IMG/VR virus record: IMGVR_UViG_3300045988_126550
Location: 32,001-96,000 of that record
Source of the DNA: a virus
DNA length: 64,000 nt
Strand: one strand, 5' to 3'
Both the position numbers and the translations under genes were made by a program. Positions 43-63,354 of the stretch are shown piece by piece (position 1 is the first letter of the stretch; every line of letters begins with the position of its first letter). The notes under the pieces were generated by a model, which saw only the letters and a list, made by a program, of their open reading frames with translations, made no database searches and had not been told where the DNA came from.

Positions 43-53
43 TACAAAATTAT
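43..53 (+). promoter_or_regulatory. leader-motif variant TACAAAATTAT
   Basis: 20 nt upstream of ATG 74. Confidence 0.4.
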
Positions 54-73
54 TACTGAAAGGAAATAAAACC

Positions 74-502
74 ATGAAAAAGATTCTTGCTATCGTTCTT
101 GCCCTGCTCGTTATCCTGTCCCTGACTGCTTGTACAAATCCGATGCTGACATCAGCCGAAGTTCACGAAACGGAAACCGAGCCGAGTGGCATCACGAAGG
201 ATGAATGCGTAAAGGAAATTGACACAGAGTTCAAATCAATCTTTGGCGATGACTTGCTTCTCACCATGTATGAGGACGGAATTTATTCTGTCGTATTCAC
301 AGCAGAGGGAATTGACGACATCTACAATTACTATCACGCAATTCCTACTGACATTTCTAATCCTGTAAAGGAAATGAGCAAAGCAACTTACGAAGCAGGT
401 CTTGACAATATGTTTGTGCTTGTAAGTGATGTTGACAATACAGAATTGCTCATCATCTACAACGGAATTGATGTAACGAAGGAGGTACTCAATGAAAACT
501 GA
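74..502 (+). CDS. putative secreted lipoprotein
   Basis: 142-aa ORF. N-terminal hydrophobic signal peptide ends in a lipobox-like LSLTAC. Confidence 0.7.
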   Translation: MKKILAIVLALLVILSLTACTNPMLTSAEVHETETEPSGITKDECVKEIDTEFKSIFGDDLLLTMYEDGIYSVVFTAEGIDDIYNYYHAIPTDISNPVKEMSKATYEAGLDNMFVLVSDVDNTELLIIYNGIDVTKEVLNEN

Positions 503-605
503 AATCAAATGTGAATATGGACACTATGTTGTCTATGCAGACGGAAAGTTCTATTGCAGTGCTGACACATACAGCGAAGCTGAAAGAGAAATTAAGGAGG
601 AATAA
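492..605 (+). CDS. small hypothetical protein (37 aa)
   Basis: ORF below the track length cut-off. AAGGAGG lies 6 nt upstream of the ATG. Fills the gap before the next gene. Confidence 0.35.
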   Translation: MKTEIKCEYGHYVVYADGKFYCSADTYSEAEREIKEE

Positions 606-608
606 ATT

Positions 609-2444
609 ATGTTTCATGTTGGCGACATGGTAAAAGCACTTGATGATGGAAGTCATTATACCATTACAACGAGAGGTTGGATTGGGTATGTGACGAGAGT
701 AATCAACGACGACACAATCTGTGTATCTAATAGCATGCCTGGTATTTTTAAGGAATGGAGAGTGTCGGCTCGTTATTTTGAGTTAGTTAAATCAACTTGT
801 ATTGAAGAAAAGGAGGAAAATAAAATGGATGTAAAGGAAATTATCACTGAGGACGAAAGAAAATCACTTCTTAAGGACATGGAGCATTTGCTCGATGAAT
901 ATGACTACGACTACACCGAGGAAGCGCTCGACAGGATCATTAACACATGGGCAGAAAACAAGGCAGACCTTATCACCGCTTTCAAGAAGCATCCGAACTA
1001 TCTCAAAGGCAAATTCATGATTGTATTCAGCCACAATTTTGCACGCGAGACAAGCACCAATGCGCTTAGAGACTTTGCCAAATGGCTTCTGGATTTGGAC
1101 AATGCACTTGCAGTAAGGGAATTCATGCCTGATGACATGAAAGACTATTGCACGTCTTATGGTAAAAAACTTCCTGGAGCTATCTTCAATTTCGTTATCA
1201 ATCTGTACCAATTCTCTGACCAGTACATTGACGAGGCAACCGCAGGTAAATTTAATGAAATGTTGCCTGACATTCACGCTCACAACGGACAGAAGATGAG
1301 CCGCGTTATGAACAAGCTGCTCACATACATTGGCTACAATAAGCTGCCCGACTACAATAGGGAATTTGCAAAGTATGCTGATGCAATCAATCCGCTTCAG
1401 ATTGTAAGGCATACCGTTCTTTCTGTGAACCCGCTTGATTATCTCACCATGTCGTTTGGTAATTCGTGGGCAAGCTGCCATACCATCGACAAGAAAAACA
1501 AGCGTGGTATGCCTAACAGTTATGAAGGAATGTATTCTTCTGGTACTGTAAGCTACATGTTGGATAAGCCTTCCATGGTATTCTATACTGTGGACGCAGC
1601 CTACGGAGGGAAAGATTTCTGGCATGAGCCTAAGATTAACCGTCAGATGTTCCATTGGGCAGAAGACAAACTCGTACAGGGCAGACTGTACCCGCAAGAC
1701 AATGACGGAAACGGTGGTGCATATACTCCTTACAGAGAAATTGTCCAAAAGATTATGTCCGAAATCTTTGAATTTCCGAATCTGTGGACTGTCTCAAAGG
1801 GAACTGATGCGGCAAGCAAATATGTGGTATCCGAAGGCACTCACTATAGAGACTATGAGAGCTACAGTAATTGCACACTTTCTCGTCTGAAGGGAAGCGA
1901 GAATGAAGAATACTTCACAGTTGGTCATGCACCGATTTGTATCAAGTGCGGCTATGAACATGACAAACAGGGAAATATTTCTTGCTGCGCTAGTAAAGTA
2001 ACTTGCGCAAATTGCGGTTGCCTCATTGAAAGTGATAGTGACGAAGTCGTTTGGATTAACGGAGAACCATATTGCAGCGATTGTGTAAGCTGGTGCGACT
2101 GCTGCGAAAGCTACGTTGTTAGCGGTGTAACAGAAGTAGATGGTGGCTATTTTGTGTGTGATGATTGTTTGGATAATTATTACAGACAGTGTTCCGATTG
2201 TAGAGAGTACCATAGGGAAAGCCGCATGACATATGTAGACTCCATTGAAGATTATGTTTGCCGCAATTGTCTTGAAGAGAATTATTCTTTCTGCGATGAC
2301 TGCAGAGAATTCTTCAGAAGCGAAGACTTGACAGAACATAATGGACGTTGGTTGTGTGATAGTTGTCTTGAAGAAGCGGAAGCACAGGAAGAAGACGATG
2401 AAGAAGAAAGCTCCGAGGCAAACGCCGAAGAACAGGCTATTTAA
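609..2444 (+). CDS. hypothetical protein with C-terminal multi-CxxC (zinc-ribbon-like) repeats and an acidic tail
   Basis: 611-aa ORF with an AAGGAGG RBS. The C-terminal ~170 aa are rich in CxxC pairs and end in a D/E-rich tail. No family recognised. Confidence 0.8.
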   Translation: MFHVGDMVKALDDGSHYTITTRGWIGYVTRVINDDTICVSNSMPGIFKEWRVSARYFELVKSTCIEEKEENKMDVKEIITEDERKSLLKDMEHLLDEYDYDYTEEALDRIINTWAENKADLITAFKKHPNYLKGKFMIVFSHNFARETSTNALRDFAKWLLDLDNALAVREFMPDDMKDYCTSYGKKLPGAIFNFVINLYQFSDQYIDEATAGKFNEMLPDIHAHNGQKMSRVMNKLLTYIGYNKLPDYNREFAKYADAINPLQIVRHTVLSVNPLDYLTMSFGNSWASCHTIDKKNKRGMPNSYEGMYSSGTVSYMLDKPSMVFYTVDAAYGGKDFWHEPKINRQMFHWAEDKLVQGRLYPQDNDGNGGAYTPYREIVQKIMSEIFEFPNLWTVSKGTDAASKYVVSEGTHYRDYESYSNCTLSRLKGSENEEYFTVGHAPICIKCGYEHDKQGNISCCASKVTCANCGCLIESDSDEVVWINGEPYCSDCVSWCDCCESYVVSGVTEVDGGYFVCDDCLDNYYRQCSDCREYHRESRMTYVDSIEDYVCRNCLEENYSFCDDCREFFRSEDLTEHNGRWLCDSCLEEAEAQEEDDEEESSEANAEEQAI

Positions 2445-2453
2445 GGGAGGTAA

Positions 2454-3371
2454 ATGAATATGAATAAAGAGTTTGAAAAAATTTGCCGCATGTCTCAGAA
2501 ATCACTGAAGAATCATGTGAAACAGAAACTGGTAAAAACACACGGTGAAATTGTCAGCGGGGATGGTTTTGTGTTTGCACAAGGTAAATTCCCCGTGCTC
2601 TTGATGGCACATCTTGACACAGTGCACAAAATCTTGCCGACCATGGTTGAATATGATACAGAACAGAACATTATTTCTTCTCCTAATGGAATTGGAGGAG
2701 ATGATCGATGCGGTGTATACATGATTTTTAAGATTCTCAAAAAATATAATTGCTCAGTTCTTTTCTGTGAGGATGAGGAGATTGGATGTGTTGGCGCAGG
2801 GAAATTCATTAAAACAGAACTTGCAAAGGAACTCGATTTTAATTACATCATTGAGTTCGACCGTGCCAATGCAAACGACGCAGTATTTTATCAGTGTGCA
2901 AATGATGAGTTCGAAAAATTCATCACAAAGGAATTCTATGAAACAGCATTTGGTTCGTTCTCTGATATTTGCGAGGTTGCGCCATTCATTGGGTGTGCGG
3001 CAGTGAATCTCAGCTGTGGATATTACAGAGCACATACCACAAGCGAATATGTGGTGCTTTCTGAAATGGAAAAGAGTATTCAGGAAGCATGCAAGATTCT
3101 TGAAAGGACAACGGAAAACGACAAATTCAATTATGTGGAAAGCTATCGCAGTGCCGCAGCAGATTGGATTGATGAGATGTATGATGACTATTATGGCAGC
3201 AAGTATTATGTTGTCGAATATGTAGACAAAAATAATATTATGTGCTGGTATGATACGATCGCACATTCCAAGGCAGAGGCAGTCGGCAAATTCGTTATGG
3301 AATGCCCCGACATTCCTTTTGAAAATGTAATTGACGTCATGGTTGACAGCAACGTGTACAACTATATCTAA
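2454..3371 (+). CDS. clan MH (M20/M28/M42-like) zinc peptidase-like protein
   Basis: Motifs AHLDTVH, GGDDRCG, EDEEIGCVGA and a distal RAHTTSE resemble the metal ligands of the family. GGGAGG RBS. Confidence 0.6.
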   Translation: MNMNKEFEKICRMSQKSLKNHVKQKLVKTHGEIVSGDGFVFAQGKFPVLLMAHLDTVHKILPTMVEYDTEQNIISSPNGIGGDDRCGVYMIFKILKKYNCSVLFCEDEEIGCVGAGKFIKTELAKELDFNYIIEFDRANANDAVFYQCANDEFEKFITKEFYETAFGSFSDICEVAPFIGCAAVNLSCGYYRAHTTSEYVVLSEMEKSIQEACKILERTTENDKFNYVESYRSAAADWIDEMYDDYYGSKYYVVEYVDKNNIMCWYDTIAHSKAEAVGKFVMECPDIPFENVIDVMVDSNVYNYI

Positions 3372-4443: not shown

Positions 4444-4866
4444 ATGAACATATCAAGAGAAATCAAAAAGGCAGAGGCAATTAACCGCATGAAAGAGCTT
4501 GGGCTGTTTGCTCCGTGTATCAAGGCATTCAAGAGAGGCGAGGTGCAGCTTTCTGAACCGACTGGAGGTTTGTATGAGTTCAGCAGCGATAAGGAACTTA
4601 CTGCAAAGGTGCAGGAGTTTGAAAAGGAAAACAATGCACTTGTGTATCATGTAATTCATACTCCTGCAATGATTGACGGCGAAGCAATGGATATGTACAA
4701 TTTCTTGTATGTATCGGATTATCAGGAGGAGTGGGAAATGGACAATGCCGACATCAAGGAAGGTTATGCCCTTGTTTATGTATGGAACAAAACCATTGAC
4801 TACTTCAGTGAGTTTGGCAGCATTGCAGTCAAAGAAAGGTTCGGTGGACTTGTGCGAATCGGCTAA
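4444..4866 (+). CDS. hypothetical protein
   Basis: 140-aa ORF with an AAAGGAGG RBS directly after a leader-motif copy. Confidence 0.75.
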   Translation: MNISREIKKAEAINRMKELGLFAPCIKAFKRGEVQLSEPTGGLYEFSSDKELTAKVQEFEKENNALVYHVIHTPAMIDGEAMDMYNFLYVSDYQEEWEMDNADIKEGYALVYVWNKTIDYFSEFGSIAVKERFGGLVRIG

Positions 4867-5097: not shown

Positions 5098-5103
5098 ACG
5101 CAA

Positions 5104-5114
5104 TACAAAATTAA
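5104..5114 (+). promoter_or_regulatory. leader motif TACAAAATTAA (exact)
   Basis: 12 nt upstream of ATG 5127, directly after a terminator with no sigma-A promoter between them. Confidence 0.55.
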
Positions 5115-5126: not shown

Positions 5127-6332
5127 ATGAAACTTTTGCTTAGACAGTTTGGTGACGAATGCTACGTATGGAAAAATGCGGAAATGAATGATGAAAAAAC
5201 ATTTATTGTGGATGGGAGAACTGTAAATCAGGGAAACGTCGTGTCTATTTATAGAGACAATAGAAATAAATTCGTCAAATGTTCGCATTGTGGCACTATT
5301 CTCAAGAATACGGACACAGAGATCAAAGAGCATAGGCTCATGAGCACAACTTCTACAACATGTTTTGGATGCCCAAACTTAAGAACATGTGAAGAAATTA
5401 CAAAGTCGATTAAATATGTGTTACAAGATGATGGTAAGTATATTGCAACGGTCAAAAAGGAAATGCAACTCAAGTGCCGTCAGGGTTGGGGTAGATTGTA
5501 CGACATCAATTCCGAAGATGCAAGAACTGGTTGTAAATATAGAGGATGTATTGATGCAACGATGAAAAGCATTCAGGATATTTTCACAGAGTGCCCCGGT
5601 ATTTTTGATGACATTATTACCATTGACTGTATTCTGGATACAAATTTCGAAGACAGAACTTCACATAGAAACGGCACGACATATAAGCTCAAGGGAAGAG
5701 ACAACATTGTGGCGGTTGGAACAGAATTAAAAAGAGGGCATACAACTTCATGTGGATGTTTGCGCAATGAAAAAATATCAAAAGCAAACAAAAAAGAAAA
5801 TGTGTTTGATTTAGATAGTGCGGAATATGCTATCGGATATACAGCGAAGGGAGAGGAATTTTGGTTTGATAAAGAAGATTATGATTTAGTAAAAAAATAT
5901 TGTTGGCATTATTATCAAGGATATGTAATAACAAACGGAGAAGACCATCATAAAATTTATTTGCATAGATTAGTTATGGGTGTAACGGATTGTAATGTAT
6001 GTGTTGATCATATTATTCACCCACCATATCCACAGCATAAAATAGACAACAGAAAGTCAAATTTAAGAATAACCACAAATCAACAAAATACAATGAATCG
6101 GTCTTTGAACAGAAATAATTCAAGTGGAGTAACTGGTGTTACATGGGACAAAAAGAACAACAATTGGAGAGCGTACATTAGATTTAATTGGAAGCTAATC
6201 CATCTTGGCAGTTTCATCAACAAAGAAGATGCTATAGCTGCTCGAAAAGCAGCAGAAGAAAAATATTTTGGCGAATACGCATACAAAGAAGAATTGAAAG
6301 GAGATAACAATGAGAGATTCAAAGAGAATTGA
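5127..6332 (+). CDS. HNH + AP2-domain homing endonuclease-like protein with an extra N-terminal Cys-rich region
   Basis: The C-terminal half carries SCGCL, YLHRLVMG, VDHI..NRKSNLR (HNH_3-like) and SGVTGVTWDKKNNNWRAYI...LGSF (AP2-like). It is a paralog of 30686..31438. Confidence 0.8.
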   Translation: MKLLLRQFGDECYVWKNAEMNDEKTFIVDGRTVNQGNVVSIYRDNRNKFVKCSHCGTILKNTDTEIKEHRLMSTTSTTCFGCPNLRTCEEITKSIKYVLQDDGKYIATVKKEMQLKCRQGWGRLYDINSEDARTGCKYRGCIDATMKSIQDIFTECPGIFDDIITIDCILDTNFEDRTSHRNGTTYKLKGRDNIVAVGTELKRGHTTSCGCLRNEKISKANKKENVFDLDSAEYAIGYTAKGEEFWFDKEDYDLVKKYCWHYYQGYVITNGEDHHKIYLHRLVMGVTDCNVCVDHIIHPPYPQHKIDNRKSNLRITTNQQNTMNRSLNRNNSSGVTGVTWDKKNNNWRAYIRFNWKLIHLGSFINKEDAIAARKAAEEKYFGEYAYKEELKGDNNERFKEN

Positions 6333-6826: not shown

Positions 6827-6831
6827 GACGA

Positions 6832-6842
6832 TACAAAATTAA
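6832..6842 (+). promoter_or_regulatory. leader motif TACAAAATTAA (exact)
   Basis: 13 nt upstream of ATG 6856. Confidence 0.55.
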
Positions 6843-7592: not shown

Positions 7593-7621
7593 TTGACAAT
7601 AATACAAAATTAATGTATAAT
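7593..7621 (+). promoter_or_regulatory. sigma-A-type promoter
   Basis: TTGACA-N17-TATAAT. A leader motif lies inside the spacer. Confidence 0.6.
7603..7613 (+). promoter_or_regulatory. leader motif TACAAAATTAA (exact)
   Basis: 20 nt upstream of ATG 7634, inside a promoter spacer. Confidence 0.55.
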
Positions 7622-7633: not shown

Positions 7634-8329
7634 ATGAAAAAGACAAACGAAAATAAAGTATGGATGGACAGAGAAGACTATATTAATTATCTTTCAGTAA
7701 AGACAAATGAGGTACATATAAGCGACCACAACAGTAAGACAGGCCCTTTGTGCAATGACTTAGCATTTCCCGTTTGTACTTGTCGCGAAGATGCCCCATG
7801 TAGAAACGGCGGCTGCTATTGTATGAAAGGCAGACAGCAAATAGCAGTTGTACAGGCCGCATATACAAGAAACTTGAGACTATACAATACAGATCCGGTA
7901 GACTTTTGGGAGCAAGTAAAATTTAAGATTAAGCACCGTCCGTATCCGTTGTTTAGGTGGACAGATTGCGGTGATATTCCTGATGCGGACTTCTTTGTTG
8001 GGATGGTTGACTTGGCAAAGACGTTTACCGATATTAAGTTCCTTGCATATACAAAGAAATATTGGATTGTAAATGAATGGATTGATAAGAACGGAGACTT
8101 GCCAGATAACCTTACAATCAGATTTTCTGCATGGCATATTGGTTGGAAGGTAGAAAATCCTCATAATTTACCGGTTGCTTATGTGGATTTCAAGGATAAA
8201 ACTTTGAATCCTGAGTTTCCAAATGGGACAACTGGTTGTCCTAATCAAAAGGATAAAACAATCACTTGTAGTATTTGTAGAAAGTGTTTCAATAAGAAAA
8301 TTCAATCTGTTAAGTTTGACCAACATTAA
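7634..8329 (+). CDS. Cys-rich hypothetical protein
   Basis: ATG 8 nt after GGAGGT. Cys clusters CTCREDAPCRNGGCYC and CPNQ..CSIC..C. Family not securely recognised. Confidence 0.7.
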   Translation: MKKTNENKVWMDREDYINYLSVKTNEVHISDHNSKTGPLCNDLAFPVCTCREDAPCRNGGCYCMKGRQQIAVVQAAYTRNLRLYNTDPVDFWEQVKFKIKHRPYPLFRWTDCGDIPDADFFVGMVDLAKTFTDIKFLAYTKKYWIVNEWIDKNGDLPDNLTIRFSAWHIGWKVENPHNLPVAYVDFKDKTLNPEFPNGTTGCPNQKDKTITCSICRKCFNKKIQSVKFDQH

Positions 8330-8332
8330 CAA

Positions 8333-8343
8333 TACAAAATTAA
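8333..8343 (+). promoter_or_regulatory. leader motif TACAAAATTAA (exact)
   Basis: 18 nt upstream of ATG 8362. Confidence 0.55.
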
Positions 8344-9184: not shown

Positions 9185-9466
9185 ATGAAAATTGTTAGAA
9201 ATGGAAACGAATTTGAACTTACAAAAGACGAACTTTATACGGCATATCTAGAACGAGAGCACGAATTTGACAGAGATACTTGTTTATGTTACATTGATGA
9301 ACATTTTAGCGACGATGAATGGTATGGCGAAAAGAGCTATGACGACATTATGCAGTTGACTGATAAAATGGCATATGAGTATCGAAGGTATGTGAATAAG
9401 TATTTAGATGAGGATTTCGCGCTATCCAATGCATGGGATTGTATTAAGGGAACAATACAAAATTAA
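9185..9466 (+). CDS. hypothetical protein
   Basis: 93-aa ORF. Its last codons (IQN-stop) are supplied by a leader-motif copy. Confidence 0.7.
   Translation: MKIVRNGNEFELTKDELYTAYLEREHEFDRDTCLCYIDEHFSDDEWYGEKSYDDIMQLTDKMAYEYRRYVNKYLDEDFALSNAWDCIKGTIQN
9456..9466 (+). promoter_or_regulatory. leader motif TACAAAATTAA (exact)
   Basis: 12 nt upstream of ATG 9479. Overlaps the last codons and the stop of the upstream ORF. Confidence 0.55.
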
Positions 9467-11412: not shown

Positions 11413-11441
11413 TTGACAAAACAAAATTAATGTGGTAAGAT
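11413..11441 (+). promoter_or_regulatory. sigma-A-type promoter
   Basis: TTGACA-N17-TAAGAT. A motif variant lies inside the spacer. Confidence 0.5.
11420..11430 (+). promoter_or_regulatory. leader-motif variant AACAAAATTAA
   Basis: 29 nt upstream of ATG 11460. Confidence 0.4.
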
Positions 11442-11459: not shown

Positions 11460-11693
11460 ATGATTTGGGTGAAAACGTTATACGGATGTGAATCTGAAAA
11501 CTGTGCAGCTTATTGTAAATTGCATGGATGTTGTATGACGGTAAGGCAAATTAGAAAGAAGAATTGCCTACAAAAGCAATGTCATTATTTAGAAAAGATT
11601 GAAACACATGATTGGTGGAGACAGAGAGCGGTTACAAAGCAAAGACGAATTGACAGGAAAGAAAGATTATATGGAGGTATCAAAAATGTATAA
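11460..11693 (+). CDS. small basic Cys-rich hypothetical protein
   Basis: 77-aa ORF with an AAAGGAAAGG RBS, downstream of a promoter. Confidence 0.55.
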   Translation: MIWVKTLYGCESENCAAYCKLHGCCMTVRQIRKKNCLQKQCHYLEKIETHDWWRQRAVTKQRRIDRKERLYGGIKNV

Positions 11694-12108
11694 AAAGGTA
11701 AAGTATAATGGAGAACCTGCATTTGTATACTATAACGCAAATCCAAAAGGAAAAAATACTGATGATTGTGTAATTAGAGCAATCGCAGCAGCAGAGGGAA
11801 GAGAATGGGTGGACGTGTTAAAGCAACTGACTGATTATGCAATTAAAACTGGGTATATGACAACAGCTGTAGAAAATTATACCATATATTTTAAGGAAAA
11901 CGGCTGGACAGAAAAATCACAGCCAAAGAAAGCGAATGGTAAAAAATATAAGGCATATGAATTTGCAAAAATTTATAACGGGAGATGTCTTGCTCATGTT
12001 GGAGTGCACCACATGAGCTATTTGTGTGATCATAGCTGGTACGATTCTTGGAACTGTACGGAAGGAGTCGTAGGGAAATATTGGGTTTATGAAGGAGAGA
12101 TTAAATGA
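11686..12108 (+). CDS. hypothetical protein
   Basis: Internal ATG of track ORF 11599..12108 with a GGAGGT RBS. 8-nt overlap with the upstream gene. Confidence 0.65.
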   Translation: MYKKVKYNGEPAFVYYNANPKGKNTDDCVIRAIAAAEGREWVDVLKQLTDYAIKTGYMTTAVENYTIYFKENGWTEKSQPKKANGKKYKAYEFAKIYNGRCLAHVGVHHMSYLCDHSWYDSWNCTEGVVGKYWVYEGEIK

Positions 12109-12536
12109 GCTATGCTAATCAGAATTTTAATGAATGGCTTGCAGATAAGCAATTGAGCGGAAGATACAAGACAAAATTATATCTTGATGGTGATATAGAA
12201 TGTCAAGCAGATCATAAAATCTATCATCTGAAAGGAATATATTATGTTGATTCAATGTATAATAATGGCGTTTACAGTTGCGTTAATGAAGATGGGATTG
12301 GAATAAGTGCAAAGCATAAAGATTTGGTTAGAATTGTTAAGCAAGTATATAACCAAAAGGATGTAGACAATTGGGTTAAATCTTCACGAGATAAAAATCA
12401 GTATGTAGATACTTTCAACGGAACGCTTTGGTATATCGTATTGATGATTTTAGTAAGCTTATTTAATGGAAGGATTGTAGGCTGGATATTCATTACGATT
12501 GTATATTTTATATGGAAATATCAAAAACATAATTAA
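12105..12536 (+). CDS. hypothetical protein with a C-terminal transmembrane segment
   Basis: ATGA overlap with the upstream gene. Hydrophobic C-terminus. Confidence 0.65.
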   Translation: MSYANQNFNEWLADKQLSGRYKTKLYLDGDIECQADHKIYHLKGIYYVDSMYNNGVYSCVNEDGIGISAKHKDLVRIVKQVYNQKDVDNWVKSSRDKNQYVDTFNGTLWYIVLMILVSLFNGRIVGWIFITIVYFIWKYQKHN

Positions 12537-12553
12537 TATTAAGGAGGTAAATT

Positions 12554-13536: not shown

Positions 13537-13565
13537 TTGACTAAATTAATATTGTATTGTATAAT
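13537..13565 (+). promoter_or_regulatory. sigma-A-type promoter
   Basis: TTGACT-N17-TATAAT. Confidence 0.6.
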
Positions 13566-14479: not shown

Positions 14480-14509
14480 TTATGTTGCTCATTATTCAAA
14501 TACTTACAG

Positions 14510-14520
14510 TACAAAATTAA
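14510..14520 (+). promoter_or_regulatory. leader motif TACAAAATTAA (exact)
   Basis: Intergenic. The next start is 97 nt away, with a promoter in between. Confidence 0.45.
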
Positions 14521-14551
14521 TTAGAAATATATAGCAGGGGAACATTAGTTC

Positions 14552-14869: not shown

Positions 14870-14893
14870 CAAATTGGAAATATGTGGTATAAT
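14866..14893 (+). promoter_or_regulatory. sigma-A-type promoter (extended -10)
   Basis: TTGACA-N16-TGgTATAAT. Confidence 0.6.
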
Positions 14894-15185: not shown

Positions 15186-15194
15186 TTAACACAA

Positions 15195-51428: not shown

Positions 51429-51908
51429 ATGGGAACTAACTTCTATATGATTACAAAGAACAAAGAAATGGCTCAGCGGTATGCACCATATTCTTATGAG
51501 CTTACGGATACGCCATATTTCGGATATGAGATTCACGTAGCCAAGACTAGTTTTGGCTGGTTGCCGCTTTTCCAAGAGCATAAAGATGGTATTAACTCTG
51601 TAGCTGAGTATAAAGTGGCATATGATACAAATGAGTTTAAAATTTATGATGAATACGGATGTGAATACAATTGGGATGCCTTTGATGATAGAGTGCTAAA
51701 GTTCAATGGCGGGGTTCTTGGGGTACAGGAGCCGAAGAAGATTGAGCAAAACAAATATTTTCGATGGTATGACAAGAGCATGCCAGACTATTGCCCTGTT
51801 AGTCATATTAGTGGAAGTCTGCAGAGCTATAAGTTTGATGGTTTGTTTGCGAATGATTATTTCGTTGACGCTGATGGATTTGAATTTTCAAGGAGTGAAT
51901 TTTCGTAA
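51429..51908 (+). CDS. hypothetical protein
   Basis: 159-aa ORF with an AAGGAGA RBS. Confidence 0.7.
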   Translation: MGTNFYMITKNKEMAQRYAPYSYELTDTPYFGYEIHVAKTSFGWLPLFQEHKDGINSVAEYKVAYDTNEFKIYDEYGCEYNWDAFDDRVLKFNGGVLGVQEPKKIEQNKYFRWYDKSMPDYCPVSHISGSLQSYKFDGLFANDYFVDADGFEFSRSEFS

Positions 51909-53023
51909 TGTATCATCTTGAACTAAGAGACTTCATTCTTTCTCATGAAAACTGGGAAGAACTACTCACAGCTGATCCTTACAACCTAAAGATTTCTCGT
52001 GATGGCAATTATATCATGTTCAAGTATAATCAAATCTCTTCTGATTTTACAATTCCTCTAGTTCGTGAAGCACGTGGAATTATTTTCAGAGAGAGTGATT
52101 GGGAATGTGTCTGCGAAAAATTTACAAAATTCGGCAATTACGGCGAGTCTTATTGCCCAGACATTGATTGGGCAACTGCTTCTGTGCAGGAAAAAGTTGA
52201 TGGATCGCTTATTGGCATGTTTTATGATAATGGATGGCATATTTGTACCAATGGTACAATTGATGCCTTTAAAGCGGAACTTAATGATGTGAAGTATCAG
52301 AATTTTGGGCAGCTTGTCCTTGCGGCAATTCATCGTGTATTTGAAGACGAGCATAAGTTCTTTACGATGCTAGATCCAAAATGTACATATATGTTTGAAC
52401 TCGTGTCTCCTTATAACCGTGTTGTAATTCCGTATGAAGACACTAAGCTATATTTTCTTGGTATACGTGATATGGAAGATGGGAAAGAATGGAATCCAGA
52501 AGATTCTGATATAAGCTATGATTTTGAAATGCCTAAGCGTTATTCTCTTCATTCTCTTGAAGATGTACAGAAGGCAGCAAATGCACTTCCTTGGGACGAA
52601 GAAGGTTATGTGGTATGCGACGCAAATTTCAACAGAGTAAAGATTAAGTCTGGTGCTTACGTTATGGCACATTATGCTCGTAATAATGGAGTAGTCAATA
52701 CAGAGCGTCTTGTTCAGATTATACTGGATGGAGAGCAGGAAGAGTTCCTTACTTATGCATCCGATTATACTGACGAGTTAAAGAAAGTGGGAAAAGCAAT
52801 GTATGAGATTGGGTATAAAGCATTTGATAAGCTGAGAGAAATTTTTAACATGAAAGAGTTTGAAACTCGTGGTGCTTATGCTCGTGAAGTTATGAAATGC
52901 CCAATGTATATGAAAGACTTCCTATTCCATTGTTTTGATTCTAGAATCTTTTGGGATTATGCAAAGTCTTGGGATGCAAATAAATGGGTTAAAGCTATTA
53001 ATGAATTAAATGGAGGTATTTAA
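51908..53023 (+). CDS. Rnl1-family (T4 RnlA-like) ATP-dependent RNA ligase
   Basis: Aligns by eye with T4 Rnl1: REARGIIF/ECRGIMF, motif I QEKVDGSL/TKEDGSL, FELVSPYNRVV/FEFVAPTNRIV and EGYVVCD..RVKIKS/EGYVAVM..HFKIKS. Confidence 0.85.
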   Translation: MYHLELRDFILSHENWEELLTADPYNLKISRDGNYIMFKYNQISSDFTIPLVREARGIIFRESDWECVCEKFTKFGNYGESYCPDIDWATASVQEKVDGSLIGMFYDNGWHICTNGTIDAFKAELNDVKYQNFGQLVLAAIHRVFEDEHKFFTMLDPKCTYMFELVSPYNRVVIPYEDTKLYFLGIRDMEDGKEWNPEDSDISYDFEMPKRYSLHSLEDVQKAANALPWDEEGYVVCDANFNRVKIKSGAYVMAHYARNNGVVNTERLVQIILDGEQEEFLTYASDYTDELKKVGKAMYEIGYKAFDKLREIFNMKEFETRGAYAREVMKCPMYMKDFLFHCFDSRIFWDYAKSWDANKWVKAINELNGGI

Positions 53024-53024
53024 T

Positions 53025-53291
53025 ATGAAGAATAATATTGGGCCAATTATTGGAATTATTGGAGTAGTTATTTTGTGGATTCTTTCTCCTATCATCATCT
53101 TCGGTGCCGGTTGGTTTGGTGGTTGGATTCTGATGAAAATTGTTGGTGGAGCAATTGCATCTGGTCTAAACACACTATTTGGAACGACTAGATTTGTTCC
53201 AGAATTAATTCCTGTTGTATGTGGAGCTCTAGCAGTTATTGGAAGTTTCTTTAAGGCTACTGTAAGTAGTAGCAATGTGATGACAAAATGA
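53025..53291 (+). CDS. small membrane protein
   Basis: Internal ATG after GGAGGT. Three hydrophobic, Gly-rich segments. Confidence 0.6.
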   Translation: MKNNIGPIIGIIGVVILWILSPIIIFGAGWFGGWILMKIVGGAIASGLNTLFGTTRFVPELIPVVCGALAVIGSFFKATVSSSNVMTK

Positions 53292-54097
53292 ATTATCATT
53301 CAGATCAGTGGATTATGGATAGGGTTCAAGAGCACTATAATGAGGCTCTTGAATCCTTTCCGAAGGACAGAATTATTGGCATCTTCTATCAAGGCAGTGG
53401 CAATTATGGGCTTGATTATGAAGGTTCAGATGTTGACACCAAACTGATTGTAACACCAACATTTAAGGATATTGCAATGAATAAGAATCCCGTTAGTACA
53501 ACTCATATTCGAGCCAACGACGAACATACAGACTGGAAGGACATTAGGCTCTATATTCAGACATTTAGGAAGCAGAACTTGAATTTTCTAGAAATTCTTT
53601 TCACAACATACAAAGTCCTAAATCCTATGTATGAGGAACAGTGGAACAGACTTATTGATGCCAGAGAAGGTATTGCACGTTACTCTCCCATTCAAGCCAT
53701 TAAGTCTATGAGAGGAATCGCTAAAGAAAAGTATTTTGCAATGGAACATCATTATCCGTCTCGTATGGAGTGGATTAACAAATTTGGATACGATCCAAAA
53801 CAACTACACCATTTATTACGTGTAGAGGAGTATATTGAAAGATATATTAATGGTGAGTCCTATGAGAAATGTCTACAATCAAAAATGCCGGAGTTTCTCA
53901 AACAGGTAAAGACTGGAGAGTCTTTTGATTTGGGCACAGCAAGAATTGTGGCGGAAAAGTCAATTGGTCATATTGACGAAATGTGTGATAAGTTCTTAAA
54001 AAGAGAATGGAGCGTTGACGAAATTATTAATGCTTTGTTAGACAGTGTGCAATATGAAATTATGAGGATTGCAATTAAGAAAGAGATTGGTGGTTAA
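53288..54097 (+). CDS. Pol-beta superfamily nucleotidyltransferase (RNA-ligase-associated RlaP-like)
   Basis: GSGNYGLDYEGSDVDTK (GS...DxD). Adjacent to RNA ligase and kinase genes. Confidence 0.7.
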   Translation: MNYHSDQWIMDRVQEHYNEALESFPKDRIIGIFYQGSGNYGLDYEGSDVDTKLIVTPTFKDIAMNKNPVSTTHIRANDEHTDWKDIRLYIQTFRKQNLNFLEILFTTYKVLNPMYEEQWNRLIDAREGIARYSPIQAIKSMRGIAKEKYFAMEHHYPSRMEWINKFGYDPKQLHHLLRVEEYIERYINGESYEKCLQSKMPEFLKQVKTGESFDLGTARIVAEKSIGHIDEMCDKFLKREWSVDEIINALLDSVQYEIMRIAIKKEIGG

Positions 54098-54718
54098 ATG
54101 ATTAACATTCGTCAAGACTTGATTCAAAAGGAGTTTGAAAAAGGTTGTACCAATGGGCTTACATTTCGAAAATTAAAGCCTAGCAATAGATTTATTGATA
54201 AGCTTTTTAATCATTACTATGTTGCCGAGCACACAGAACATTTCTATGATTCTGAGCCGGAATATGATGATGAAGAATTCAATATGTATATGGATTACGC
54301 TTATATTCATCATAGAATAAATCCTACTTCTGGCACTGCTCTTTTTAATACAATTCTTAATTCTGAAGAAATAGCAAAAGAACAAGAAGACTTTCGTTTT
54401 TCAAAAGAAGAACACACAATAGAAGAACTAAAGCAAGCGTATGATAAAATTATACAACAGAGAAAAGATTATGAGCTACACAGAATTGAATTTAACAACT
54501 GGATAGAGCCTTATTTTAAGGGTAATTGGAGAATGTCTCAGAAAGATGTTGACAAAATTAGCAGAGAGCATCTTGAATACACAAAGAAATGTGGAGTAAG
54601 TTATAATGGCAGACTTTACATTGCAGAAAAAGAAGATTCGATTTTTATTTATTACTACGGCAGAGATTTTGCAATGGTAGATTATTGGTGGATTTTTAAG
54701 AGAAGAAGGAGAAAATAA
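54098..54718 (+). CDS. hypothetical protein
   Basis: 206-aa ORF, tightly packed. Confidence 0.7.
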   Translation: MINIRQDLIQKEFEKGCTNGLTFRKLKPSNRFIDKLFNHYYVAEHTEHFYDSEPEYDDEEFNMYMDYAYIHHRINPTSGTALFNTILNSEEIAKEQEDFRFSKEEHTIEELKQAYDKIIQQRKDYELHRIEFNNWIEPYFKGNWRMSQKDVDKISREHLEYTKKCGVSYNGRLYIAEKEDSIFIYYYGRDFAMVDYWWIFKRRRRK

Positions 54719-55623
54719 TGGTTAAGTGTTTTGTTATGTGTGGACTCCCCGCAAGCGGAAAGAGTTGGCAAGCCAAGAAACTTGCCGAGGAATATGATGC
54801 AGAAATTTTCTCTAGTGACTCACTTCGAGAGGAAATGTTCGGAGATGTGAATCATCAGGCAGACAACGATGCTCTGTTCAAGGAACTACATAAGCGTATT
54901 AGAGAGCGTCTTGCTTCTGGCAAGAATGCCATTTATGACGCCTGCAATATCAGTTATAAGCGCCGTATGGAATTCCTTAAGTCTCTTAACAAAATTCCTT
55001 GTGAGAAAATTGCAATCCTCATGGCAACGCCTTATGAAGTCTGTCTTGAACGTAACACACAACGAGAGCGTAAAGTCCCAGAACATGTTATTAAACGTAT
55101 GTATATGAGCTGGAATAGTCCATATTGGTATGAAGGTTGGGACGATATTCAGATTGTATATTCAGAAGGAGCAGAAGGAAGCTACGGAGGAGTAGGTGAT
55201 TGGGTTGAGTCTGTTATGGATTACAACCAACATAACAGCCATCATTCTTTAACACTTGGGGAACATTGTCTCAAAACATTCGAATACTTAAATTCATTGC
55301 CAGTTGCATTCTGGGAACTTAGAACTGCGGCGTTGATACATGATTGTGGCAAATGCAAAAGTGCTACATATATCAATAGTAAGGGCGAACAAACGGATGA
55401 ATGCCATTATTATAATCACCAATTTTGTGGATCATACGACAGCTTGTTCTTCAGCGGTATAGATAGACATCTTTATATTGCGCAACTTATTCAATGGCAT
55501 ATGAGAGCGTACCTTGCGTGGGAGCATTCTGAAAAAGCAATGCAGAAGGATAGAAAACTTCTTGGGAAGACTTTATTTAATGATATTTGTTTGCTTCACG
55601 AAGCAGACCTTGCAGCGCATTAA
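54718..55623 (+). CDS. polynucleotide kinase-like P-loop domain fused to an HD phosphohydrolase domain
   Basis: Walker A CGLPASGKS and a kinase-like N-terminal half. The C-terminal half carries HSLTLGEH...LIHDCGK...H. A terminator follows. Confidence 0.75.
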   Translation: MVKCFVMCGLPASGKSWQAKKLAEEYDAEIFSSDSLREEMFGDVNHQADNDALFKELHKRIRERLASGKNAIYDACNISYKRRMEFLKSLNKIPCEKIAILMATPYEVCLERNTQRERKVPEHVIKRMYMSWNSPYWYEGWDDIQIVYSEGAEGSYGGVGDWVESVMDYNQHNSHHSLTLGEHCLKTFEYLNSLPVAFWELRTAALIHDCGKCKSATYINSKGEQTDECHYYNHQFCGSYDSLFFSGIDRHLYIAQLIQWHMRAYLAWEHSEKAMQKDRKLLGKTLFNDICLLHEADLAAH

Positions 55624-55629
55624 CCAATT

Positions 55630-55655
55630 GGTACGGCATTTTCGCCGTACCTTTT
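55630..55655 (+). terminator. rho-independent terminator
   Basis: GGTACGGC-attttc-GCCGTACC followed by TTTT. Confidence 0.8.
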
Positions 55656-55670
55656 GTGCATGTTGACAAC

Positions 55671-55698
55671 TTGACAAATAGCAAATTCATGCTATAAT
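55671..55698 (+). promoter_or_regulatory. sigma-A-type promoter (extended -10)
   Basis: TTGACA-N16-TGcTATAAT. A second TTGACA lies 8 nt upstream. Confidence 0.65.
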
Positions 55699-55718
55699 AA
55701 TGGCAGAAACAAGAACAA

Positions 55719-55729
55719 TACAAAATTAA
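55719..55729 (+). promoter_or_regulatory. leader motif TACAAAATTAA (exact)
   Basis: 14 nt upstream of ATG 55744. Confidence 0.55.
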
Positions 55730-55743
55730 AGGAGGATAAATAT

Positions 55744-56325
55744 ATGAGAACTATTAGAAGAGGAGTGTTTGAATCGAACTCGTCCAGCACACACAGCATT
55801 GCAATTAGTAAAGAAAAGGTTCCAAATGTAGCCGGTAGACATGTTTATTTTGGAGCTGGTGAGTACGGTTGGGAACAAGGTTGCGTAGGAGACACCGCAT
55901 CATATTTGCATACGGCAATTGTTGACTCTTCTACTCCTGCACAATACGAGGAGAGAATCAATAAGATTAAAGAAATTCTTGACAAGTATGGGGTGCAATA
56001 TAAATTCGCGCCAGTTGAATATCAGAAGTCTGAGTACAATCCCGATTATGAATATATTAAATTTGCATCTCCTAGTTATAGATATGCGTATGTTGATCAC
56101 GCAGGAGAGTGTGCAAAACTAATTAATGCACTGCTTTCAAACGAAGACCTTCTAATTAGATATCTTTTTGGCAATAGTTGCATTTATACCGGCAATGATA
56201 ATTCTGATGACGAAGACAGTATGTGCTATTGCGCAGAGGCAACTATTTGGGATGATAATTATAAAACTATCCCAAACCCAAATCACGACGCAGAACATTA
56301 TGATTACTTTTTTAAGGGGAATTGA
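55744..56325 (+). CDS. hypothetical protein, FE(S/T)NSSSTHS family, paralog 1
   Basis: N-terminus MRTIRRGVFESNSSSTHSIAI. Paralog of the next gene. Confidence 0.7.
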   Translation: MRTIRRGVFESNSSSTHSIAISKEKVPNVAGRHVYFGAGEYGWEQGCVGDTASYLHTAIVDSSTPAQYEERINKIKEILDKYGVQYKFAPVEYQKSEYNPDYEYIKFASPSYRYAYVDHAGECAKLINALLSNEDLLIRYLFGNSCIYTGNDNSDDEDSMCYCAEATIWDDNYKTIPNPNHDAEHYDYFFKGN

Positions 56326-56327
56326 TT

Positions 56328-56738
56328 ATGAGACAGATTAGAAAGAATGTATTTGAAACAAATAGTTCTTCTACTCATTCACTAACAATGTGTACAAAAG
56401 AAGAATATGATAATTGGAAAAGCGGAAAACTTATGTTTGATATAGATAGTAAGAAATTTGTATCTCCGCTAGAAGTAACAAGTAAAGATTTCAAGGAAGC
56501 GGAAATTAATTATGAATCCAGCAAACAAAAATATCAGAAAAATTGGGATCAGCTGACTAAAGAAGAACAAGAAGAATATACACTTGGGTATATTAAAGAG
56601 AATAAGTCAATGTATGAAATTGTAACATATTCTGAGTGGCTAGATAGAAATGATTATCTAGACACATTCTATAGAGAATATACTACTAAAAACAACGAAA
56701 GAATTGTGGCTTTCGGCGCTTATGGCTACGATGGTTAA
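56328..56738 (+). CDS. hypothetical protein, FE(S/T)NSSSTHS family, paralog 2
   Basis: N-terminus MRQIRKNVFETNSSSTHSLTM. ATG after AAGGGGA. Confidence 0.7.
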   Translation: MRQIRKNVFETNSSSTHSLTMCTKEEYDNWKSGKLMFDIDSKKFVSPLEVTSKDFKEAEINYESSKQKYQKNWDQLTKEEQEEYTLGYIKENKSMYEIVTYSEWLDRNDYLDTFYREYTTKNNERIVAFGAYGYDG

Positions 56739-56748
56739 GGAGGAAAAT

Positions 56749-57648
56749 ATGAATCTTATTGGCAAGTATCAGAATGGGAATTATACCGTGAGTTTGTACG
56801 ATGATGGAACTAAGATTCGTGAGAATGATTTGGATAATCTGACTCCTGCTTTTGCAGAGAACTGTGATGTTAAAATTACAGATAAGTGTGATGGAGGTTG
56901 CGCCTTCTGCTATGAGGGATGTACTGCTAATGGTAAACACGGGGATATTCTTAATCCTCAGTTTCTAGATACTCTGCATCAATATACTGAGCTTGCTATC
57001 AATGGCAACGACCTTTCTCATCCAGATTTGGTTCCTTTCATGTACAAGATGAAAGAGAAGAATATCATTCTCAATATGACGGTCAATCAGATTCATTTTG
57101 AGAAGCACTTTGATACAATCAAGGAATGGATTGATAAGAAGTTAATTTATGGGCTTGGCATCTCTCTACGTAAGCCGACAGATGAATTCATTGATATGGT
57201 TAAGCAGATTCCAAACGCCGTTATTCATGTAATCAATGGTATTGTTTCTATACCAGATCTTGATGCTCTTTCTAGAAATGGGCTTAAAATTCTTATTCTT
57301 GGATATAAGAATCTAAGACGTGGTGAAAGTTATTATGAGAGTCACAATGAAAGTGTACTTGGATTACAGGAAGATTTAAACCGCTACCTTTTCCCTGAAA
57401 TTATCGGGCACAGTTGGTTTGACGTTGTGAGTTTTGATAATCTAGCAATCGAACAGCTTCATGTTAAAGAACATATGTCTAAGGAAGAATGGGATAGTTT
57501 CTTTATGGGCGAAGACGGCGATTATACTTTCTATATTGATATGGTCGAAGGAATGTTCGCAAAAGATTCCTTGTCTATGGAACGTTATCCTCTTATGGAT
57601 AATATTGATGATATGTTTAACTTTTTGAGAAATAAGAAGGAGAAGTAA
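56749..57648 (+). CDS. radical SAM enzyme
   Basis: CxxxCxxC cluster in ITDKCDGGCAFCYEG. Internal ATG after AAGGAGGA. Confidence 0.75.
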   Translation: MNLIGKYQNGNYTVSLYDDGTKIRENDLDNLTPAFAENCDVKITDKCDGGCAFCYEGCTANGKHGDILNPQFLDTLHQYTELAINGNDLSHPDLVPFMYKMKEKNIILNMTVNQIHFEKHFDTIKEWIDKKLIYGLGISLRKPTDEFIDMVKQIPNAVIHVINGIVSIPDLDALSRNGLKILILGYKNLRRGESYYESHNESVLGLQEDLNRYLFPEIIGHSWFDVVSFDNLAIEQLHVKEHMSKEEWDSFFMGEDGDYTFYIDMVEGMFAKDSLSMERYPLMDNIDDMFNFLRNKKEK

Positions 57649-57650
57649 TT

Positions 57651-58484
57651 ATGGATAAGACATCTCTTGGTGATAGAATGAAAAACAACTATGAAAATGT
57701 TAATAGATTTTATTTAACAAGAAGAATACCAGTTATTATTAGAATGGATATGAAGGCCGGTCATACTTTTACTAGAGGAATGAAGAAGCCGTTTGATGAT
57801 ATTTTCGTAAAGACAATGCAAGAGACTATGAAGTATCTCTGTGAAAACATTCAGGGTTGTGTGCTTGGTTACACTCAGAGCGACGAGATTTCTCTTGTAC
57901 TGACAGACTATGCAGGGTTGACAACAGATGCATGGTTTGGAAACAATCTACAGAAGATGTGTAGCGTATCTGCGAGTATGGCAACATTGGCATTTAATAA
58001 AGCATTTAACGACAATATTGTAAAGTATATTGACAGTTATTTTGATACCGATTGTGGGGTTACGAAGGATTTAGCTGAATATACAAAGATTCTCATTAAT
58101 GCAAGAAATAAAGGCGCAATGTTTGACTCTCGTGTTTTTACAATTCCTAAAGAGGAGGCATGCAACTACTTCATCTGGAGACAGCAAGATGCCACTCGCA
58201 ATTCCATCCAGTCTGTGGGTCAAGCAAACTTTAGTGATAAAGAATTGCATAAGAAATCCACTAAAGACATTCAAGATATGCTTATGACTCAGAAAGGTAT
58301 CAACTGGAATGACTATGCAACGACTCTAAAGCGTGGTAGCTGTTGTATTAAAGCCGATGATAGTCTTACCGAGTATGACGAGGTGGGAAATATTTGTGGT
58401 TATATCCAGAGAAGTAAGTGGGTAATCGATAATAAAATTCCTATCTTTACTCAGGACAGAAACTATGTTGAAAAGCTAATTTGA
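57651..58484 (+). CDS. Thg1-like protein (tRNA-His guanylyltransferase family, 3'-5' nucleotidyl addition)
   Basis: PVIIRMDMKAGHTFTRGMKKPFD and GYTQSDEISLVL match the Thg1/TLP core motifs. Confidence 0.8.
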   Translation: MDKTSLGDRMKNNYENVNRFYLTRRIPVIIRMDMKAGHTFTRGMKKPFDDIFVKTMQETMKYLCENIQGCVLGYTQSDEISLVLTDYAGLTTDAWFGNNLQKMCSVSASMATLAFNKAFNDNIVKYIDSYFDTDCGVTKDLAEYTKILINARNKGAMFDSRVFTIPKEEACNYFIWRQQDATRNSIQSVGQANFSDKELHKKSTKDIQDMLMTQKGINWNDYATTLKRGSCCIKADDSLTEYDEVGNICGYIQRSKWVIDNKIPIFTQDRNYVEKLI

Positions 58485-63272: not shown

Positions 63273-63277
63273 ATTTT

Positions 63278-63308
63278 GGGTGGCAGTATAAAAAATTGTA
63301 TTGCCACC
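63278..63308 (+). other. stem-loop after ligA (possible terminator lacking a T-run)
   Basis: GGTGGCA-N17-TGCCACC, immediately before the next promoter. Confidence 0.4.
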
Positions 63309-63310
63309 TC

Positions 63311-63338
63311 TTGACAAATATTATAATCGTGCTATAAT
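63311..63338 (+). promoter_or_regulatory. sigma-A-type promoter (extended -10)
   Basis: TTGACA-N16-TGcTATAAT. Confidence 0.65.
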
Positions 63339-63343
63339 AACAG

Positions 63344-63354
63344 TACAAAATTAA
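63344..63354 (+). promoter_or_regulatory. leader motif TACAAAATTAA (exact)
   Basis: 15 nt upstream of ATG 63370. Confidence 0.55.

Follow-up and report, generated by a model that had tools for sequence, protein, structure and literature searches.

The locus analyzed here raises the question of what recognizes a short sequence that recurs ahead of many genes in a phage genome, and at which step of gene expression. The stretch of 64,000 nucleotides under study (hereafter the window; positions 32,001 to 96,000 of IMG/VR virus record IMGVR_UViG_3300045988_126550) is part of the 162,719-bp metagenomic contig ENA ERZ27229354 k115_207452, and its genes point to a large temperate phage of the Firmicutes type, with SPbeta and Clostridium phage c-st among its relatives. 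The repeated element was noticed in an initial annotation as the 11-mer TACAAAATTAA. According to our analysis, the full unit is a 15-bp box, ACAATACAAAATTAA, and we put the probability at roughly 80% that this box is a DNA operator for the master repressor that the phage itself encodes at 13592-14479, a protein of the MrpR/SroF (YopR) family. We favor a DNA operator because the phage encodes a homolog of this repressor, because the box resembles the SPbeta repeated element (SPBRE), because some copies lie in promoter spacers, and because an inverted copy is both conserved and co-varying. The initial annotation had proposed a phage-specific element that is linked to expression, served by a phage-encoded factor and not purely translational, and this general picture stands. 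The specific roles it listed (promoter or sigma-factor element, RNA processing site, site for a translational or antitermination factor) are not favored.

The 21 exact copies of TACAAAATTAA reported initially are all present where they had been placed, all on the + strand, and their number is indeed beyond chance: dinucleotide shuffles are expected to contain 0.20 copies and contained at most 2. When one mismatch is allowed, the window has 30 matches against 6.5 expected, 29 of them on the + strand. The initial statement that the - strand carries none is thus correct for exact copies but not for near ones, since a one-mismatch inverted copy lies at 13546-13556. The reported near-copies were also recovered, with one mismatch at 43, 11420, 38715, 41419 and 48050, and with two at 27546 (CACGAAATTAA). 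Alignment of the copies defined the 15-mer, which has sharp edges and is often trailed by T(G). CAA precedes 12 of the 21 exact 11-mers, in keeping with the earlier remark that about half are extended.

For a scan of both strands with a position weight matrix (PWM) we joined the flanks to the window, obtaining an 83,091-bp stretch of the same genome. At a threshold of at least 14 bits the scan found 30 sites on the + strand and five on the - strand, compared with a random expectation of 0.46 per strand. All 35 sites are intergenic or overlap the end of an open reading frame (ORF), the sole exception being a weak site at 12170, and 33 of the 35 are co-directional with the gene downstream. The plausible genes of the window are all on the + strand, and strand bias alone therefore cannot tell a strand signal from a gene-orientation signal. 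The flanks make this distinction. Three of the five minus-strand sites precede minus-strand genes co-directionally (two of these three stand behind TTGACA/TATAAT-type promoters), and the other two are inverted. Because the boxes before minus-strand genes outside the window sit on the minus strand, box orientation tracks transcription and not the DNA strand. A Chi- or KOPS-like strand signal was ruled out by the intergenic location of the sites and by their agreement with gene orientation on either strand. A full-text literature search with the motif string returned only irrelevant primer matches, and megablast of 20 kb against the INPHARED phages gave no match; relatives of the phage were located by protein and by motif.

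The position of the boxes relative to promoters, stop codons and ribosome binding sites is highly patterned. The boxes of the window are as follows; in the text, individual sites are cited by the start of their 11-mer.

39-53, + strand: box, variant ACAATACAAAATTAT; lacks a nearby sigma-A promoter, gene 74-502 starts 20 nt downstream; PWM score 20.5 bits
3374-3388, + strand: box, weak variant ACAAAACAAAATTAT; promoterless, 2 nt past the stop of 2454-3371; PWM score 17.8 bits
4416-4430, + strand: box; 25 nt after the -10 hexamer, abuts AGGAGG of gene 4444-4866
5100-5114, + strand: box; promoterless, behind a terminator-like hairpin (-19.8 kcal/mol) and before the HNH gene 5127-6332
6828-6842, + strand: box; promoterless, 1 nt past the upstream stop codon, abuts GGGAGG
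7599-7613, + strand: box; inside the 17-bp spacer of a perfect promoter, TTGACA-N17-TATAAT (7593-7621)
8329-8343, + strand: box, perfect consensus; promoterless, overlaps the upstream stop codon; 24.7 bits
9452-9466, + strand: box, perfect consensus; promoterless, forms the last codons (I-Q-N-stop) of ORF 9185-9466, abuts GGAGG
11416-11430, + strand: box ACAAAACAAAATTAA; in a promoter spacer (TTGACA .. TAAGAT) at the head of operon 11460-13534
13546-13560, - strand: inverted box ACAATACAATATTAA, one mismatch; occupies the repressor promoter's spacer and may serve as autoregulatory operator
14506-14520, + strand: box; promoterless, directly behind the hairpin of the repressor gene
15191-15205, + strand: box, perfect consensus; promoterless, 5 nt past the ORF behind the box-less perfect promoter 14866
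16433-16447, + strand: box; promoterless, behind a hairpin and before the homing-endonuclease gene 16491-18104
18130-18144, + strand: box; starts 1 nt after the -10 (TATTAT)
23312-23326, + strand: box; begins 1 nt behind a perfect promoter's -10
24847-24861, + strand: box; begins 1 nt behind a perfect promoter's -10, abuts AGGAG
28222-28236, + strand: box; promoterless, forms the last codons (I-Q-N-stop) of ORF 27796-28236
30238-30252, + strand: box; starts 1 nt after the -10 (TATAAA) of a TTGACA-N16 promoter
30654-30668, + strand: box; promoterless, overlaps the upstream stop codon, before the HNH gene 30686-31438
34746-34760, + strand: box; begins 1 nt behind the -10 of the second promoter in a tandem pair, a perfect one
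38711-38725, + strand: box; 16 nt after the -10 of a perfect promoter
41415-41429, + strand: box; 17 nt after the -10 of a perfect promoter
41837-41851, + strand: box; 14 nt after the -10 of the perfect promoter of tRNA-like non-coding RNAs, not of an ORF
47900-47914, + strand: box; 12 nt after the -10 hexamer
48046-48060, + strand: box, weak variant AGAATACAAAATTAT; before gene 48090-49190; 16.4 bits
49225-49239, + strand: box; begins 1 nt behind a perfect promoter's -10
55715-55729, + strand: box; 16 nt after the -10 of a perfect promoter, abuts AGGAGG
63340-63354, + strand: box; begins 1 nt behind a perfect promoter's -10

We classified 27 window sites. Fifteen of them lie within or just behind strong host promoters: seven start exactly 1 nt after the -10 hexamer, six follow it at 12-25 nt, and two (7603 and 11420, whose location between -35 and -10 had been pointed out in the initial annotation) fill a 17-bp promoter spacer (TTGACAAT-ACAAAATTAA-TGTATAAT). 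A box is found on 10 of the 12 perfect TTGACA/TATAAT promoters in the window. Pooling the promoter-linked boxes of all related loci yields three discrete registers: the spacer holds 12 boxes, another 29 begin exactly 1 nt behind the -10, and 17 follow it at +12 to +17. Spacer boxes are not transcribed from their own promoter, which is evidence against a purely RNA-level role. Toward the gene, the box usually lies 0-7 nt ahead of a Shine-Dalgarno (SD)-like sequence, with a gap of only 0-1 nt at 9456, 4420, 24851 and 55719. The distance to the start codon is 12-20 nt at 19 of the 27 sites (counting the longer ORF start at 28251; 18 with alternative gene starts), as the initial annotation had it for most copies. 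We explain this closeness by packing: little room is left between a promoter or stop codon and the SD sequence, and the box takes it up, as SPBRE does at yopV and yopM of SPbeta.

The remaining 12 of the 27 sites have no sigma-A promoter and are located between a stop codon and the next ribosome binding site. All are co-directional, and they lie -15 to +27 nt from the upstream stop codon; the exceptions to this distance are the weak site 48050 and site 43, the upstream gene of which is outside the window. Those at 5104, 14510 and 16437 directly follow a hairpin. Some promoterless boxes are perfect-consensus copies, and two, at 9456 and 28226, supply the I-Q-N-stop of the upstream ORF, just as reported; for both reasons promoterless boxes are held to be under selection. 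They tend to sit where read-through would be harmful, as with the box at 14506-14520 behind the repressor hairpin, that at 15191-15205 behind the short unit of promoter 14866 and, in one relative (L068), the promoterless boxes that stand on each side of a gene for a YonO-like RNA polymerase. No co-directional box was found among the late tail genes in 11.4 kb of a 98%-identical relative; the sample of the late (minus-strand) block comprised ~15 kb of the 163-kb genome. As a separate observation, the replication region contains four free-standing HNH/homing-endonuclease genes (5127-6332, 16491-18104, 21578-23017 and 30686-31438), three of which stand behind a promoterless box (5104, 16437 and 30658).

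The candidate for the protein that reads the box is encoded within the same stretch, and its gene and immediate surroundings comprise the following features.

12554-13534, + strand: XerD-like tyrosine recombinase, apparently intact; Pfam Phage_integrase 121 bits, PDB XerD 1.6e-17
13537-13565, + strand: repressor promoter TTGACT-N17-TATAAT, conserved in relatives
13592-14479, + strand: candidate trans factor, a MrpR/SroF (YopR)-family integrase-fold repressor of 295 aa, assigned by BLASTP, PDB, Pfam and Foldseek
14465-14490, + strand: terminator-like hairpin at the end of the repressor gene; -13.3 kcal/mol with the whole 55-nt segment folded

BLASTP aligns the 13592-14479 protein with SPbeta YopR at 2e-10, and in the PDB search it matched SroF-phi3T (9rd5, 1.1e-9), YopR (8bj6, 5.7e-8) and MrpR (8a0a, 1.3e-7). 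The Pfam domain MrpR_N_CB is detected with 48.8 bits (cut-off 27). When the predicted structural model was submitted to Foldseek, the top seven matches were all SroF/MrpR/YopR (E-values from 4e-9 to 6e-6), and Cre and other recombinases followed only at ~3e-3, about five orders of magnitude weaker. The ranking suggests a family-specific relationship, while the TM-scores of the model are too low for a geometric argument. The catalytic residues of recombinases appear to be lost, which, given an alignment at 22% identity, is moderately secure. In this alignment (A2) the position of the catalytic Arg-I is occupied by V134/S135 (V137/S138 in MrpR) and the HxxR motif by K238..A242 (N254..R258 in MrpR), whereas the C-terminal tyrosine is kept, Y294 pairing with Y304 of MrpR. 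The XerD-like gene lies immediately upstream, as YopP does in SPbeta, although tblastn of SPbeta YopP against the window gave no match.

The family is known from SPbeta-like phages. In SPbeta, SPBRE has been identified as the site of MrpR (YopR, also called SroF) by chromatin affinity purification sequencing (ChAP-seq), electrophoretic mobility shift assays and reporter assays, and MrpR was found to be a monomer with a tyrosine-recombinase fold that has lost most catalytic residues and has no recombination activity (Kohm 2023, PMC10516654). The element is also treated in Lazarevic 1999. SroF of phi3T, which has many sites genome-wide, was solved in complex with DNA, which one monomer encircles, reading 24 of the 26 bp of an A-tract box; SroF is released by Sar, a small LexA-controlled antirepressor encoded one ORF downstream (Chmielowska 2025, bioRxiv 10.1101/2025.11.27.690993).

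We extracted SPBRE from SPbeta DNA as AAATACAAA(A/T)AATATGTATA. The 134 kb contain ~12 good copies, each oriented like the gene that follows. It occurs in the spacers of TAGACA-N17-TATAAT promoters (yonP, yorE, yorM, yorZ, yosX) and between the -10 and the ribosome binding site (yopV, yopM). SPBRE and the window box thus have the same placements, and they have the core AATACAAAA in common. Both are asymmetric, A-tract-rich, co-directional and present in many copies, and both occur with homologous integrase-fold repressors that lack catalytic residues. In both phages the repressor gene is preceded by a gene for a tyrosine recombinase, and the SOS-like box and small gene that follow it in the window may correspond to those of the SPbeta-like phages. 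The genomic backbone is likewise shared. The replication set of the window (helicase, primase, RecJ-like exonuclease and DnaE polymerase) is SPbeta-like; its DnaE-type polymerase is 55% identical to that of c-st, whose annotation names homologs of SPbeta YorF/I/J/L. YonO-like single-subunit RNA polymerase genes are present in the box-bearing relatives L062, L068 and L112 (27-29% identical to SPbeta YonO, E-values from 4e-32 to 2e-28). The two systems also differ. The box of the window phage has another sequence and is shorter, its density is ~5 times higher (35 sites in 83 kb versus ~12 in 134 kb), ~40% of the window sites are promoterless while essentially none are in SPbeta, and inverted copies accompany the genes for the repressor and the integrase. 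The phage comes from a human-gut metagenome, with an uncultured host instead of Bacillus. Homologs of YonP, YonR and YosL were not found in the window and its flanks by sequence search.

The inverted copies bear directly on whether DNA or RNA is recognized. Within the window there is a single inverted near-copy, at 13546-13560, and it takes up the spacer of the repressor gene's promoter, TTGACT-aaATTAATATTGTATTG-TATAAT. This copy is kept in relatives whose repressors are 60-90% identical, and it is always centrally off-consensus. In these relatives the box ends in TTAA(T). In L175 and L176, with repressors 44% identical, the box is retained but every copy ends in TTAT(T), including the inverted copy in the repressor promoter. 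As a caveat on this co-variation, L113 (repressor 46% identical) retains TTAA, and all proteins diverge together. SPbeta, phi3T and c-st each have different A-rich boxes. The second inverted box, ACAATACAAAATTAT, lies on the minus strand at L124 17447-17461, ~6.8 kb past the window end in the same genome, and abuts a -10-like TATATT directly upstream of the integrase gene (L124 17489). Its geometry matches that in the repressor promoter, so that both lysogeny genes carry a reversed box. An antisense copy cannot serve as an RNA signal, yet it is conserved and co-varies, and we take recognition to occur on double-stranded DNA. The repressor itself is conserved above the average protein in relatives, which fits the deep conservation of the box. 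For Geobacillus virus E3 (repressor 25% identical), motif discovery gave AT-rich k-mers only and no clear box. The c-st genome (L127, NC_007581 31580-74630) has a repeat of its own, (A)CAAAATTAAATTAAA, with a 12-mer core present ~15 times in 43 kb; a shorter 10-mer probe gave 23 matches, all on the + strand, and the copies abut the ribosome binding site or stand just upstream of the -35.

From these observations we infer that the 13592-14479 protein binds the box and represses transcription. In the prophage state, one repressor molecule would occupy each box. Where the box lies in the spacer or 1 nt after the -10, RNA polymerase would be kept from binding or from leaving the promoter. Where it lies 12-17 nt downstream or is promoterless, the repressor would most likely block the elongating polymerase, and such a block would silence read-through from units active in lysogeny, namely the repressor gene and the box-less promoter 14866. 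The inverted, slightly off-consensus box in the repressor promoter may provide autoregulation. Induction would follow the SPbeta/phi3T scheme, in which case the antirepressor would be the product of a LexA-controlled gene just behind the repressor:

14540-14551, + strand: LexA-type SOS box GAACATTAGTTC; abuts a -35-like TTGCAT, the only GAACN4GTTC in the window
14618-14869, + strand: small gene of 83 aa behind the SOS box; candidate antirepressor (Sar analog) by position only

The SOS box is located 61 nt past the repressor gene, and its arrangement with the small gene is conserved in relatives, changing mainly in N4. The parallel with the SOS-controlled Sar gene is suggestive only. PDB searches with the two small ORFs downstream of the repressor gene gave nothing significant. 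The perfect sigma-A promoter at 14866-14893 is the only one described as box-less; behind it are a strong hairpin (~14896-14926) and an acidic ORF, 14973-15185, with CxxC pairs and a pI of ~4.5. This stretch (14866-15185) could represent a unit active in lysogeny, specify a small RNA or supply the true antirepressor.

Several other explanations deserve weighing against a DNA operator. The box might be an RNA-level element of the 5' untranslated region, acting near the SD either as a translational operator or enhancer (cf. T4 RegA) or as an endonuclease or processing site (cf. T4 RegB). Its co-directionality with the gene, its closeness to the SD and its position 12-20 nt before the start codon would all suit such an element, as would the promoterless copies inside operons and the many copies 1 nt after a -10, where the transcript would begin inside the box. 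We nevertheless regard it as improbable. Copies in spacers (2 in the window, 12 across all loci) are untranscribed by their own promoter, one copy precedes non-coding tRNA-like RNAs, and the conserved, co-varying inverted copies at the repressor and integrase genes only fit recognition of double-stranded DNA. Moreover, SPBRE likewise abuts ribosome binding sites and yet is a proven DNA site, and no RegA/RegB-type protein was seen among the ~40 larger or neighboring window ORFs scanned. A translational enhancer acting by 16S pairing appears unlikely, as the spacer-located and inverted copies speak against any RNA role; sigma-dependent pausing or Q-type antitermination was rejected because the sites are too many and many of them are promoterless.

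If middle or late expression relied on a phage sigma factor or on a YonO-like single-subunit RNA polymerase, with the box as all or part of its promoter, this would account for the boxes at 5104, 14510 and 16437, which lie behind terminator-like hairpins with no room for a sigma-A promoter, and for the homing-endonuclease genes that have a box of their own. Relatives do encode YonO-like polymerases, and the box is deeply conserved, much like the late promoter of T4. Such a promoter is still less probable than an RNA element, as at 9456, 4420, 24851 and 55719 the SD follows by 0-1 nt and the start site would fall inside the box, and as boxes within or behind perfect host promoters at fixed registers are typical of operators. 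In addition, the boxes mark the replication and early block and are missing from the 11.4 kb of late tail genes mentioned above, whereas SPbeta YonO transcribes the late structural operon (PMC8270828); the related SPBRE, for its part, is bound by a repressor. The slimmest chance of all is left to integron-like shuffling, with the boxes as recombination or cassette-boundary sites of the XerD-like recombinase (12554-13534) and the integrase-fold protein. These two genes do adjoin, the recombinase being apparently intact, the boxes flank many small genes and mobile HNH genes, and gene content between conserved boxes varies (e.g. L122 versus window 24851-28226). The boxes are, however, asymmetric and single, without the inverted-repeat architecture of recombinase core sites, their fixed promoter registers would be unexplained, the integrase-fold protein is without catalytic residues, and MrpR has no recombination activity (PMC10516654).

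The repressor-operator interpretation has difficulties of its own. The repressor is only 22-25% identical to YopR, its C-terminal Pfam domain MrpR_C_cat scores 19.6 bits, below the cut-off of 27 (the domain is recorded for 120 of the 120 homologs listed), and its AlphaFold model is poor (pLDDT 65, pTM 0.41, TM-scores of ~0.3). The conserved box spans 15-17 bp compared with the 24 bp read by SroF-phi3T. Phages whose other proteins have only 35-70% identity still share the exact box, a degree of conservation beyond that of usual immunity operators. The candidate antirepressor is basic (pI 9.5) and without sequence similarity to Sar or YopT; known Sar proteins are <20% identical to one another. 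Tblastn found no homologs of YopQ and AimR in 83 kb of the 163-kb genome, and in the same 83 kb there was none of AimP or of Sar/YopT, all of which sets the phage apart from SPbeta. A YopQ homolog is present in Geobacillus E3 and distant relatives, and the arbitrium module AimR/AimP is not essential to the repressor-operator pair. Finally, the 12 of the 27 window sites that lack a recognizable sigma-A promoter are not explained by the SPbeta system, and the role we suggest for them draws on analogy with mycobacteriophage stoperators.

In mycobacteriophage L5 and other cluster A phages, the monomeric repressor gp71 blocks elongation at asymmetric, strictly oriented intergenic stoperators (PMC9283540). 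The window phage resembles this system in having more than 20 asymmetric sites of 13-15 bp genome-wide, placed in promoters and short intergenic gaps, in their strict orientation relative to transcription and in the box variants found between related phages. It differs in that gp71 has a helix-turn-helix plus a 'stoperator' domain, while the protein here has an integrase fold, in that the L5 box is GC-rich, and in that elongation block has been demonstrated for L5 and is inferred here. A gp71-type repressor was not seen, the candidate having an integrase fold, and no search aimed at a gp71 homolog was made. Any resemblance would be one of working mode and not of ancestry. We advance only tentatively, at rather less than even odds, that the promoterless boxes (~40%) may be polar roadblocks to elongating host RNA polymerase, forming a stoperator network built independently on a dead recombinase, in which the inverted boxes would have the opposite outcome. 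Promoterless boxes do bracket the presumed lysogeny-on units and, in relatives, the YonO-like polymerase gene.

Two further systems invite comparison. The operators of phage P1 C1 are asymmetric sites of ~17 bp, each occupied by a monomer. They are scattered over many promoters of this large prophage, and related phages share them. Asymmetric dispersed operators are thus common to P1 and the window phage, but C1 is an unrelated protein, and we know of neither a uniform orientation nor promoterless intergenic sites for its operators. The start-associated sequences (SAS) of cluster K mycobacteriophages are conserved 13-mers immediately upstream of many start codons, in gene orientation, and to our knowledge have no identified binding protein. 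SAS contain the ribosome binding site, whereas the window box is separate from the SD and is accompanied by a credible repressor. What is new here is the density of sites and the promoterless, stoperator-like ones; the kind of repressor-operator pair itself is already known from SPbeta.

Some other features of the genome were noted along the way. The box at 41841 had been described as preceding the tRNA island, but the island, with five tRNA genes, lies at 44557-46288 (one of them, a 96-nt tRNA-Ile(TAT), may carry an insert). The box instead precedes two tRNA-like (Y-RNA-like) elements at 41888-42136, which have a ~57-nt insert in the anticodon arm, score 49.8 and 41.9 bits with the Rfam tRNA model and give a weak YrlA match (23.6 bits). 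Directly downstream is a DUF2828/TROVE-like 'RNA-binding' gene, 42340-43926. Judging from sequence, 41888-43926 looks like a phage-borne Y-RNA/Ro-like module under a perfect sigma-A promoter with a box. An RNA repair set at 51908-58484 comprises an RNA ligase, a nucleotidyltransferase, a polynucleotide kinase and a Thg1-like tRNA-His guanylyltransferase.

ORF 40194-41363 codes for a divergent protein of the adenylosuccinate-synthetase family, annotated as PurZ-like by PHROG (4e-65); its NCBIfam scores are 83 bits for PurA (cut-off 402) and 28.7 bits for PurZ (cut-off 300). A modified adenine, if made via this protein, would matter for an A-tract operator. At L126 3700-3936, ~5.5-5.7 kb before the window in the same genome, GTGTCCYAWTTTTCGGAA is present five times (four direct, one inverted), interleaved with TTAATATAAT runs. 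The cluster sits in a 1.25-kb divergent region that separates the minus and plus gene blocks, and it could represent the sites of a second regulator, an origin or a partition site. A related 147-kb contig, L181 (USJD01000001.1), is binned as 'uncultured Prevotella sp. UMGS1762'. The bin is probably wrong, because the GGAGG ribosome binding sites and TTGACA/TATAAT promoters look Firmicutes-like.

If the box is the operator of the MrpR/SroF-family protein, a system so far studied only in Bacillus SPbeta-like phages extends to a large clade of uncultured gut phages (~150-170 kb phages from the human gut, represented by dozens of IMG/VR contigs). For these phages the boxes would provide a regulatory map that shows where the operators probably lie, which gene encodes the repressor and at which site it controls itself, together with a candidate module for SOS-controlled induction. 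The box would also mark early transcription units and lysogeny control in metagenomic phage genomes, and its lineage variants, TTAA versus TTAT, may predict immunity groups. The high site density and the oriented promoterless sites raise the question of whether elongation can also be halted by a monomeric repressor of the integrase fold, in the way known from mycobacteriophages.

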